A DNA stretch of 45,921 bases from Escherichia phage vB_EcoP-611R6. Below the pieces are notes generated by a model, which saw only the letters and a list, made by a program, of their open reading frames with translations, was not told where the DNA came from and made no database searches. Position numbers and translations under genes: made by a program. This document shows positions 2,635 to 20,236 of this stretch, in pieces; position 1 is the first letter of the stretch; every line of letters starts with the position of its first letter. The stretch lies in sequence record ON470589.1; one strand, 5' to 3'.

Positions 2635-3882
2635 ATGGCACTGAATATTCCATTCAGAAATGCGTACTATCGTTTTGCATCCAGTTACTCATTTCTCTTT
2701 TTTATTTCCTGGTCGCTGTGGTGGTCGTTATACGCTATTTGGCTGAAAGGACATCTAGGATTAACAGGGACGGAATTAGGTACACTTTATTCGGTCAACC
2801 AGTTTACCAGCATTCTATTTATGATGTTCTACGGCATCGTTCAGGATAAACTCGGTCTGAAGAAACCGCTCATCTGGTGTATGAGTTTCATTCTGGTCTT
2901 GACCGGACCGTTTATGATTTACGTTTATGAACCGTTACTGCAAAGCAATTTTTCTGTAGGTCTAATTCTGGGGGCGCTCTTTTTTGGCCTGGGGTATCTG
3001 GCGGGATGCGGTTTGCTTGACAGCTTCACCGAAAAAATGGCGCGAAATTTTCATTTCGAATATGGAACAGCGCGCGCCTGGGGATCTTTTGGCTATGCTA
3101 TTGGCGCGTTCTTTGCCGGTATATTTTTTAGTATCAGTCCCCATATCAACTTCTGGTTGGTCTCGCTATTTGGCGCTGTATTTATGATGATCAACATGCG
3201 TTTTAAAGATAAGGATCACCAGTGCATAGCGGCGGATGCGGGAGGGGTAAAAAAAGAGGATTTTATCGCAGTTTTCAAGGATCGAAACTTCTGGGTTTTT
3301 GTCATATTTATTGTGGGGACGTGGTCTTTCTATAACATTTTTGATCAACAACTCTTTCCTGTCTTTTATGCAGGTTTATTCGAATCACACGATGTAGGAA
3401 CGCGCCTGTATGGTTATCTCAACTCATTCCAGGTGGTACTCGAAGCGCTGTGCATGGCGATTATTCCTTTCTTTGTGAATCGGGTAGGGCCAAAAAATGC
3501 ATTACTTATCGGTGTTGTGATTATGGCGTTGCGTATCCTTTCCTGCGCGTTGTTCGTTAACCCCTGGATTATTTCATTAGTGAAGCTGTTACATGCCATT
3601 GAGGTTCCACTTTGTGTCATATCCGTCTTCAAATACAGCGTGGCAAACTTTGATAAGCGCCTGTCGTCGACGATCTTTCTGATTGGTTTTCAAATTGCCA
3701 GTTCGCTTGGGATTGTGCTGCTTTCAACGCCGACTGGGATACTCTTTGACCACGCAGGCTACCAGACAGTTTTCTTCGCAATTTCGGGTATTGTCTGCCT
3801 GATGTTGCTATTTGGCATTTTCTTCCTGAGTAAAAAACGCGAGCAAATAGTTATGGAAACGCCTGTACCTTCAGCAATATAG
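2635..3882 (+). CDS. cscB: Sucrose:H+ symporter (MFS oligosaccharide permease, LacY-like)
   Basis: 415 aa polytopic membrane protein; 61 bp downstream of cscK on the same strand. Confidence 0.85.
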   Translation: MALNIPFRNAYYRFASSYSFLFFISWSLWWSLYAIWLKGHLGLTGTELGTLYSVNQFTSILFMMFYGIVQDKLGLKKPLIWCMSFILVLTGPFMIYVYEPLLQSNFSVGLILGALFFGLGYLAGCGLLDSFTEKMARNFHFEYGTARAWGSFGYAIGAFFAGIFFSISPHINFWLVSLFGAVFMMINMRFKDKDHQCIAADAGGVKKEDFIAVFKDRNFWVFVIFIVGTWSFYNIFDQQLFPVFYAGLFESHDVGTRLYGYLNSFQVVLEALCMAIIPFFVNRVGPKNALLIGVVIMALRILSCALFVNPWIISLVKLLHAIEVPLCVISVFKYSVANFDKRLSSTIFLIGFQIASSLGIVLLSTPTGILFDHAGYQTVFFAISGIVCLMLLFGIFFLSKKREQIVMETPVPSAI

Positions 3883-4198: not shown

Positions 4199-4323
4199 TC
4201 ATCAGCGCTTTCTGACAGTGCTGAGATTTCAACCTGTTGCAGTAAAAATGAGTAGATATAGGGCAAGTGTGCTGCCAAACCCATCTTTTACGGGGTGAAG
4301 GTAGATATTGTTAGAAGGGTATC

Positions 4324-4338
4324 TGGTGTCCCCTGCAG
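4324..4338. repeat. attL core: partial copy of the argW 3' end
   Basis: Exact 15-bp match to 44839-44853. Confidence 0.6.
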
Positions 4339-4395
4339 ACATCTACTTGAGGATGCAGGGGATTGATTGGAATGGTGTTTTTTAGATGTGAAAAA

Positions 4396-4417
4396 TATTT
4401 TACCCGCTATTTTACCC
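4396..4417. promoter_or_regulatory. Two direct copies of TATTTTACCC (4396-4405, 4408-4417), candidate recombinase arm-type binding sites in attL
   Basis: Same octamer TTTTACCC / GGGTAAAA recurs around the integrase start at 44678-44722. Confidence 0.35.
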
Positions 4418-4612
4418 ATTGGCGCGGCTTAAGAGCTTATTTTTGAATTCACAATGGTCACGATATAACCATCTTGCTCGCCCGTGGATAACTTTGGCTT
4501 TTGGCAGGTCGCCGGACTTAATCCGGTCATAGATGAAGGTTTTACCGAAGCCAGTATCGGCCATGATGAATTTCAAATCAACCAGTGAATCAGGCTGTAG
4601 TTCGTGTTGCAT
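4412..4612 (-). CDS. torI: Excisionase / recombination directionality factor (TorI/AlpA-like winged helix)
   Basis: 66 aa, MQHELQPDSLVDLKFIMADTGFGKTFIYDRIKSGDLPKA...; RBS GGAGA before the ATG; sits at the prophage end opposite the integrase, as in KplE1/CPS-53. Confidence 0.7.
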   Translation of the reverse strand: MQHELQPDSLVDLKFIMADTGFGKTFIYDRIKSGDLPKAKVIHGRARWLYRDHCEFKNKLLSRANG

Positions 4613-4651
4613 GAGTGCTATCTCCGAATAGGGAATCGAACCTGCAAATCA

Positions 4652-4680
4652 GGCAATAAAAAACCGCCATCAGGCGGTTT
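4652..4680 (-). terminator. Rho-independent terminator (minus strand) after the early-left genes
   Basis: Stem AACCGCC / GGCGGTT with loop ATCA, followed on the minus strand by TTTTTTATT. Confidence 0.5.
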
Positions 4681-4743
4681 GGTGTTCTTTCAGTTCTTCA
4701 ATTCGAATATTGGTTACATTGTTTTCATATATGAATAAATAAA

Positions 4744-4923
4744 TTAGCTTTTTTCGTTGCCTTCGCTTTCTTTATTAATTTTAACAAACTCGTTTTTACC
4801 ACGCTCTCCAAATGCGTCTTTAGAGTCGTTGTATCCGCAATCGCAGCACACATAATCACCAGACCATCCACGCATTGTTTTTTCTTTTGCAATATTTCCA
4901 GAACCGCATTTTGGACAAGACAT
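4744..4923 (-). CDS. Small zinc-ribbon protein (CPKC...CCDC)
   Basis: Start taken at the internal Met (MSCPKCG) because it is preceded by GGAGG; four-Cys motif. Confidence 0.5.
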   Translation of the reverse strand: MSCPKCGSGNIAKEKTMRGWSGDYVCCDCGYNDSKDAFGERGKNEFVKINKESEGNEKS

Positions 4924-19881: not shown

Positions 19882-20236
19882 CCATAATTAGAAGATAAGC
19901 TGCCGTTAGTGACTCTTAAGTTGCAATGGTGGCTTTTTTTGTTTGCACAACAGGTAAGAGCATTGAACCCGCAGACCTCGCGGAATTGGTGAAAGGTGCC
20001 GCGCAGTGCTCTTATCGTTGTGGTGAAGCTCAATGGCGAGCTAGCAGATAGGCGACAGTGAAAATACTAGTCATGTAGCTGACCGCCGCGCGTACTGCAA
20101 TCGGCAGCGCACCGATGGAAGCCGGTTCGATTCCGGCCGCCACAACCCAAACTGAGCCGTAGCCACTGGCTATCCTGAATTCATCAGTGATAGTTATGCT
20201 GCGGCCTTCTACGCATGACCTTCGTGAAAGCGGGTG

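Follow-up and report, generated by a model that had tools for sequence, protein, structure and literature searches.

A T-loop-like sequence ahead of torI in an argW prophage: a candidate control element for excision

The DNA recorded as Escherichia phage vB_EcoP-611R6 (ON470589.1) was analyzed over its whole length of 45,921 nucleotides (nt), referred to here as the window. At its left end, the window carries two separate pieces of the 3' end of argW, a tRNA gene, with the small gene torI between them, which raises the question of what the second piece is. A preliminary description of the locus had offered three answers: an unusually structured attP, two successive integration events that left a torI-containing remnant, or tRNA-derived sequence reused as the torI promoter. 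The outer piece, a 15-mer, is identified by sequence as the ordinary att core duplication of the KplE1/HK620/Sf6 recombination module. The inner piece, a 16-mer, represents the version carried in E. coli of an 11-nt element that equals the T-loop sequence of argW. In all likelihood, this element serves as a sequence-specific regulatory site in the torI leader, torI being the gene for the excisionase or recombination directionality factor (RDF), and the T-loop copy would probably help to control the timing of prophage excision.

Both pieces have exact counterparts in argW, as originally described. The 15-mer TGGTGTCCCCTGCAG occurs exactly twice in the window, at 4324-4338 and 44839-44853, and the 16-mer GGAATCGAACCTGCAA also exactly twice, at 4632-4647 and 44853-44868. 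The coordinates first given for the 15-mer stand, while the 16-mer lies one base to the right of the 4631-4646 initially reported. In the tRNA, the two pieces do cover the 30-nt span 44839-44868, but they are not merely contiguous, sharing one G. Between the left pieces lie torI (4412-4612) and two TTTTACCC repeats (4398-4405 and 4410-4417), again as described. The source or counterpart of the 16-mer is the T-loop region of argW at 44853-44868; GTTCGATTC corresponds to T-loop positions 53-61, and the E. coli version spans 16 consecutive tRNA bases. The 16-mer sits between the terminator of the early-left genes and the Shine-Dalgarno (SD) sequence of torI and is already present there in the free phage. 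The chance expectation for the window is 2e-5 occurrences for a single specified 16-mer and 1.3e-3 for any 16-mer of the tRNA, falling to approximately 6e-6 if the latter must share the strand of the core and lie no more than 400 bp from it. None of the shuffled sequences contained two 16-mer matches. These expectations, together with the conservation of the element, rule out a chance match.

Conservation was assessed across 353 loci (one genome per species, plus viral contigs found with divergent Xis queries), which comprise 141 distinct upstream sequences in 52 clusters. The invariant part of the element is GTTCGATTyCC. In about 30 of the 52 clusters, GTTCGATT(C/T)CC begins 28-29 nt before the xis/torI ATG, and these clusters represent 22 independent lineages with flanks that differ at more than 12 of 55 positions. 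The element was found in phages or lineages of Escherichia, Salmonella, Citrobacter, Serratia, Pantoea, Erwinia, and Edwardsiella, lies 3-6 nt ahead of the SD sequence, and was counted 332 times in the collected DNA, compared to 47 expected. The preliminary description had held that absence from related prophages would reduce the 16-mer to coincidence; instead, 95 of 101 E. coli-type loci carry it exactly, and the 11-nt core persists in distant relatives.

The element is kept where flanks, arm-type sites, RDF sites, and Xis have all diverged. Salmonella phage Emek retains it with an Xis of 52% identity (tblastn) and an Int of 61.5% identity, and Erwinia phage phiEt88 has the identical element with an Xis of 39% (tblastn) and an Int of 73.5%, at an element-to-ATG spacing of 18 nt that equals that of E. 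coli. In both phages, the arm-type repeats read GCGGGCATA in place of GGGTAAAA. Erwinia phage Midgardsormr38, which shares approximately 77% DNA identity over the module, carries GGGAATCGAACCTG twice in tandem directly upstream of the xis start. Tandem copies occur in this Midgardsormr38-like lineage with a 16-bp period and in a second lineage (L213) with a 13-bp period. All relatives with a visible core target argW. Identity within the integrase family is at least 61% and then drops to at most 37%, with nothing in between, and in Pseudomonas phages of the phi297/F116 type, int and xis are arranged differently, in convergent orientation.

The stretch conserved ahead of torI in E. coli-type phages measures only approximately 50-55 nt and begins at the T-run of the preceding terminator, where at least three different upstream contexts meet it. 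Homology to the P22/lambda eaG terminator begins at window 4650-4654. The terminator, whose hairpin is bidirectional, thus marks the mosaic boundary of the recombination module. Scans of viral and metagenome contigs with the TorI alignment gave 100%-identical E. coli loci only and served to map this boundary.

The element shares the loop sequence of a tRNA T-arm, but neither its stem nor the acceptor arm. Neither ARAGORN nor Rfam called a tRNA at 4600-4680, and neither a complementary T-stem nor an acceptor arm was found there. The bases preceding GTTCGATTyCC vary between lineages (AG, CA, AA, CT, GC), so no T-stem is maintained and an RNA T-arm hairpin is ruled out. The element is invariant at T-loop positions 59-60, which tRNAs in general leave free. 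A viral-contig scan for the cassette GTTCGATTCC-N3-14-GGAG-N4-11-ATG yielded at least 120 matches (CAAGCTAAGG is a variant of GTTCGATTCC designed on paper only). Among the matches listed, 32 lie ahead of xis-like open reading frames (ORFs) and are stem-less, 43 fall within tRNA genes, and most of the rest are recognizable T-arms with intact stems. The match to the tRNA is extended on the 5' side (TTGCA) in the E. coli lineage only and on the 3' side (CCTG) in Serratia and Pantoea loci, the pattern expected from differential decay of a longer tRNA-derived ancestor. Judging from these sequences, descent from a tRNA and convergence would both fit, the 11-nt consensus being a generic T-loop sequence.

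The outer piece fits a well-known arrangement. HK620 and Sf6 have their attP core annotated at the matching position; the published duplicated core is 16 nt in KplE1 and 17 nt in Kapi1. The stretch 4250-4338 has counterparts of 93-100% identity in E. coli chromosomes that carry the annotated end of tRNA-Arg without an adjoining prophage, and phage homology starts precisely at 4324. torI adjoins the left junction ('attR' in the K-12 KplE1 nomenclature) and int the right, at opposite ends of the prophage. This corresponds to the order int-attP-hkaC in HK620 and Sf6 (gene 18, which is TorI, in Sf6) and to the literature on the module, which situates attP between int and xis.

The proposal of two successive integrations with a torI remnant in between is refuted for this locus. 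When the junctions are rejoined (44401-44853 plus 4339-4760), the resulting 875 bp align to HK620 positions 930-1805 as one gapless block with 97.5% identity. Therefore, no DNA has been inserted, and the 'split' arrangement exists already in the free phage. A second integration would be visible as extra DNA or an extra core relative to the free-phage attP; only two core copies are present in the window. The notion of an unusually structured attP is not supported either. On the torI side, the substrate for in vitro excision is 135 bp long and ends at primer attR-IHF2 (PMC3509656), the reverse complement of window 4419-4438. Because the 16-mer lies approximately 190 bp beyond this substrate, and because some functional-looking relatives with a complete module do without the element, it is not part of the att site.

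These comparisons also bear on whether the element could be a neutral relic, that is, a functionless remnant left either by a longer ancestral attP of tRNA origin or by an old tandem integration that later underwent deletion. A relic would suit the adjacency of the two pieces in the tRNA, the extension of the match on one side in some lineages and on the other side in others, as in differential decay, and the many relatives devoid of the element. A relic is nonetheless highly improbable, as the 11 nt stay identical while Xis drops to 39% and all flanking bases change, tandem duplication in two lineages would not be expected, and there is no extra DNA here compared to free HK620. Only the 'no function' part is disfavored, since a tRNA origin is compatible with a present function, and a tandem integration with deletion in the ancestry of the module is possible.

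The location of the element directs attention to how torI is expressed. HK620 is annotated with a 'phage integration' promoter (pI) at 1664-1702 and a cII site at 1689-1701, corresponding to window 4619-4657 and 4644-4656, respectively, and Sf6 has pI at the same place. Of the three earlier ideas, that of tRNA-derived sequence serving as the torI promoter comes closest, as the 16-mer lies in the torI 5' region inside the annotated pI/cII. However, a consensus scan of 4250-4800 found no sigma-70-like site, compared to 1.3 expected.

If pI were a cII-activated establishment promoter of the lambda type, the 16-mer would supply its promoter-proximal TTGC box and spacer. With 13 nt between the second TTGC and a possible -10 (TATTCG), the arrangement does mimic that of lambda pRE. 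The TTGC boxes of the putative cII site, however, have an N5 spacing, whereas the cII sites of lambda and P22 have N6. The first box is polymorphic among E. coli phages (ATTGCC/ATTACC), and other genera that keep the element have conserved neither the boxes nor the proposed -10. Moreover, pI upstream of xis would make Xis during establishment, the reverse of the lambda logic. Together with the empty promoter scan, this makes a pI function very unlikely, despite the annotations.

The group of Ansaldi calls PtorI 'non-characterized' (PMC2951348) and regards control of the RDF gene as the main control of excision in the module. Relatives without the element hint at how the gene is reached. In three of them (L014, L347, and L352), the sequence runs terminator-ATTGCCTGG/AGATAA-ATG. 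Because only approximately 12 nt separate terminator and SD sequence, these phages can reach xis only by terminator read-through. In phages that have the element, it is therefore part of a transcribed leader, on an indel of approximately 25 bp. The sequences thus suggest that the element behaves as a leader or operator element rather than as a promoter. Presence and absence (L014, L347, L352, L355, and L357 versus L011 and L317) appear to differ by a clean indel between short CTGG/CGG repeats, of the form GCCTGG[CTACCAGGTTCGATTCCCTGATCGG]AGATAA, suggesting loss or gain by microhomology.

Two other candidates for this region were set aside. A full-length match to the Rfam small RNA STnc130 at 4562-4689 (+), antisense to the torI 5' end and ending at the terminator hairpin, scores 32 bits (E = 0.003), below the 55-bit threshold, and rests mostly on the terminator hairpin and an A-run. 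A P. aeruginosa AlpA-type antiterminator site was rejected too, that AlpA being larger and Q-like, with the ABE sequence GGGACG.

On balance, we favor an account in which a single argW prophage carries the T-loop-equal element as a cis-regulatory site in the torI leader that gates TorI. torI would be reached by read-through of the upstream terminator, without a promoter of its own, and a factor on the element, directly beside the ribosome-binding site, would gate TorI production. The preferred partner is the core-binding/catalytic domain of the integrase, which would read the element as an attB-type (B') half-site. Being constitutive in lysogens, the integrase would keep excisionase expression low until strong antiterminated transcription sets in. 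We infer the integrase as partner for two reasons: the element equals the tRNA sequence that abuts the attB crossover region, and only the host target and the target-reading part of the integrase stay constant across these phages. The identical element in phiEt88, despite its different int-side repeats and recognition helix, fits a partner that is set by the host and not by the RDF, as does the invariance of T-loop positions 59-60. TorI itself and a host T-loop-recognizing protein remain live alternatives as partners.

The sequence beside the core adds a further hint. At the place on the torI side that corresponds to window 4339-4350 (compared in L011-L027, L190, and L195-L224), the majority of non-E. 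coli relatives have aTTCGATgta/TGCAGG, where the tRNA has gGTTCGATtcc/TGCAGG. TTCGAT thus keeps the tRNA register although the torI side never joins a functional tRNA, suggesting that the integrase reads this sequence, and it may represent a core-type (C') half-site of the integrase.

Several observations weigh against the integrase-gated leader. The C' side beside the core varies between lineages (GTAGATGTC, TTAGGTGTC, and TTCGATGTA), the first form being that of E. coli-type phages and the second that of Emek-type phages. If the integrase tolerates this variation, its binding alone leaves the near-invariance of the element unexplained. A symmetric partner half-site for the element was looked for and not identified. 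The element contains a published TorI core, GTTCG, and its tandem direct repeats are typical of RDF sites, while the near-fixed SD distance and a common C-to-T variant that keeps a G.U closing pair suit an RNA-level mechanism. Because many relatives do without it, the element is accessory. Finally, its 11-nt consensus is that of a generic T-loop, with argW specificity provided only by the E. coli 5' extension.

The TorI core sequence leads to the first competing explanation, in which the element is an autoregulatory operator, an RDF-binding site before torI by which TorI would curb, or cooperatively raise, its own production. TorI already represses the intS promoter, and KplE1 has five TorI sites in blocks of 8+12+8 and 8+2+8+2+8 nt with the cores GTTCG, GATCG, and GTCCG (PMC2951348). 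The window matches this description in layout and cores at 44745-44833, as sequence matches only: sites I3-I5 correspond to 44745-44772, which in reverse complement is CAGTTCGT-ca-TGGTTCGC-tt-CAGATCGT, and I1 and I2, 12 nt apart, are the reverse complements of 44826-44833 (CAGTTCGC) and 44806-44813 (CAGTCCGC). The element opens with the first of these cores, AGGTTCGA agrees with I4 (TGGTTCGC) at six central positions, every copy of the element is oriented as I1-I5, and the direct tandem arrangement seen in two lineages is reminiscent of cooperative RDF arrays.

The details fit less well. All 11 int-side sites (five in the window and six in Emek) have a pyrimidine after the core, where the element always has A, and the 3' half of the element, ATTCC, is as conserved as GTTCG yet absent from the att sites. 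The tandem periods of 13 and 16 bp differ from the 10 and 20 bp of the att arrays. In phiEt88, I3-I5 are replaced by GTwAm-type repeats (CCGATGTAAC, CCTGCGTTAC, and CCGGCGTAAA) and the recognition helix has diverged, without an equivalent of Arg45, yet the element is identical. We regard a TorI operator as unlikely, although slightly more probable than the other competing explanations.

The second explanation acts on RNA. Here, the T-loop-like leader sequence would sequester the SD sequence or bind a host T-loop protein (e.g., TruB or TrmA) and thereby set translation or stability. The T-loop consensus is GUUCNANNC, to which the element conforms. The SD distance is nearly fixed at 3-6 nt, the one variant that is common, C to T where the closing pair forms, would leave a G.U pair in place, and read-through transcription of the region is evident from motif-less relatives. 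In addition, the predicted probability that the SD sequence is paired is 0.82 in motif-bearing leaders, compared to 0.43 in motif-less relatives. However, shuffling the 11 nt alone lowers SD pairing only to 0.74, and composition therefore accounts for most of this effect. An SD-sequestering hairpin is accordingly a weak explanation of the conservation. The T-stem is not maintained (5' flanks CT, GC, CA, or AA), CGA is invariant although unpaired in most predicted folds, and the invariance of positions 59-60 goes beyond what a generic T-loop fold requires. There is also no covariation, both pairing partners being invariant. An RNA-level element is thus quite doubtful.

A more far-reaching version of the favored account has the element as a decoy of the chromosomal target, namely of the T-loop sequence beside the attB crossover, placed before the excisionase ribosome-binding site, where the attB-reading integrase domain or a host T-loop enzyme would gate the excisionase. 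We consider this specific wiring unlikely. If it were true, it would be an unrecognized connection of target recognition to the lysogeny/excision decision, and it could exist in other tRNA-targeting integrase families with other tRNA sequences.

The coordinates of the features discussed are collected in Table 1. From its sequence, the window is assigned as one P22-like prophage of approximately 40.5 kb with an IntS/TorI (KplE1/HK620/Sf6-type) recombination module, in the 3' end of argW. The assignment is based on the duplication of the argW 3'-end core with an intact tRNA, the placement of int and xis, and the IntS and TorI proteins. TorI is 100% identical to HK620 HkaC, Sf6 gp18, and K-12 TorI in protein comparison (a Pfam search with TorI gave no match at E <= 0.001), and the integrase shares 98-99% identity with its HK620 and CUS-3 counterparts. 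The sar RNA match points to a P22-type second immunity region, which fits the P22-like assignment.

Table 1. Features of the argW prophage and its junctions in the window
Feature	Position	Strand	Basis or remarks
Host DNA flanking the prophage, downstream of argW in the unoccupied site	4250-4323	.	Match to empty chromosomes
Displaced att core copy, argW 3' end (CTGCAGGGGACACCA on tRNA strand)	4324-4338	-	Exact duplicate of 44839-44853
Two TTTTACCC arm-type repeats (P' arm), likely integrase arm-type sites	4398-4405, 4410-4417	+	
torI, excisionase/RDF, 66 amino acids	4412-4612	-	ORF list
torI SD sequence GGAG	4622-4625	-	Kept in leader alignment A3
Conserved leader element GTTCGATTCCC (torI-sense): argW T-loop plus closing pair, core of the 16-mer	4631-4641	-	
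16-mer (TTGCAGGTTCGATTCC on tRNA/torI strand)	4632-4647	-	5' extension TTGCA, argW-specific
Intrinsic terminator (hairpin 4661-4680 plus T-run) closing the upstream early-left genes	4650-4683	-	Terminator scan
P22-type sar RNA (RF00262), antisense RNA of the P22 immI region	38553-38619	-	Rfam, 87.7 bits
intS-type integrase, 385 amino acids	43520-44677	-	Pfam Arm-DNA-bind_3, Phage_int_M, Phage_integrase
P arm	44678-44838	-	Arm-type repeats 44678-44685, 44693-44700, 44715-44722
argW, tRNA-Arg(CCT)	44839-44913	-	ARAGORN; Rfam tRNA match, 63.4 bits; sole tRNA called in window; intact

The repeat TTTTACCC occurs six times in the window, compared to 1.2 expected, and five of the six copies cluster at the two junctions. 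GGGTAAA repeats right after the xis stop codon in relatives are the kept counterpart of the left pair.

Next to the left core, an inverted repeat (CCCCTGCA/TGCAGGGG, 4331-4362, -) has one arm within the att core. On the torI-sense strand, it forms a predicted hairpin ending in ACACCA (-16.9 kcal/mol, z = -2.4, RNA fold), and it is invariant in alignment A1. Its partner arm covaries with host-specific cores, as TGCAGGGA/TCCCTGCA and TGTAGGGG/CCCCTACA (L011-L027 and L191-L224), and the variants CCCCTGTA, CTCCTGCA, and CTCTTGCA pair on the torI-sense strand only by G.U. The repeat may close the torI transcript as its 3' hairpin or terminator, or it may be a symmetric site for a protein. A small ORF across the att core (4288-4419, -) is annotated in HK620 (hkaB), Sf6 (gene 17), c341, and Emek and turns into a phage-host hybrid in the prophage; it is a candidate gene only.

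Outside the prophage, the left flank (2635-3882, +) encodes a 415-amino-acid LacY/CscB-like sugar permease instead of dsdC/dsdX, which come after torI in K-12 (comparison locus L006), and the right flank (44989-45921, -) is yfdC-like. The argW-dsd island varies between E. coli strains. A third exact GGAATCGAAC, at 20125-20134 on the opposite strand, belongs to a separate tRNA/transfer-messenger RNA (tmRNA)-like fragment unrelated to the att region. This ORF-free stretch, 20090-20148 (+), resembles a tRNA/tmRNA 3' domain with a perfect T-arm, GCCGG-TTCGATT-CCGGC, followed by CGCCACAACCC. ARAGORN made no call there, and the Rfam tmRNA match of 20 bits falls below the threshold of 47. Possible identities are a phage tRNA gene that has decayed and a piece of another element's att.

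The module is carried by many serotype-converting prophages of E. coli, Shigella, and Salmonella. Because the integrase is made constantly in the module, the decision to excise rests on TorI production (PMC2951348), and the 11-nt element beside the torI ribosome-binding site is an obvious candidate for the missing control point of torI. If the integrase or a tRNA-reading host factor binds it, recognition of attB would be linked to the control of excision. For annotation, the locus teaches that a second tRNA fragment by an att junction need not mean tandem integration.

Compared to known systems, the prophage is classed by its sequence as a full-size member of the IntS/TorI argW module, in contrast to the 10-kb KplE1 remnant, and structurally there is nothing different about it. 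Target, core, gene order, TorI-site blocks, and arm repeats are all shared with KplE1 (CPS-53), HK620, Sf6, CUS-3, and Kapi1, and what is new relative to KplE1 is the reading of the torI 5' region. The KplE1 and Kapi1 literature covered, which excludes Clark 2001, Casjens 2004, Panis 2007, and Menouni 2013, mentions no tRNA-like element in the torI leader, and the annotations of HK620 and Sf6 give only a putative pI/cII. The T-loop-like leader element thus seems to be an undescribed cis-element in a known system. It resembles the cII-dependent int promoter pI of lambda in lying at the xis end of the int-xis region, but differs in its box spacing, polymorphic first box, lack of conservation outside Escherichia and of a recognizable -10, and position upstream of, not inside, xis. 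A further parallel is offered by repression of PintS by TorI and IntS, by P2 Cox, and by lambda sib retroregulation as a functional analogue, where recombination proteins also act as regulators through binding sites overlapping expression signals and so set the Int/RDF ratio. Here, the putative operator would be a copy of the host tRNA sequence beside the crossover region, located before the RDF gene, and not a site in an att arm.

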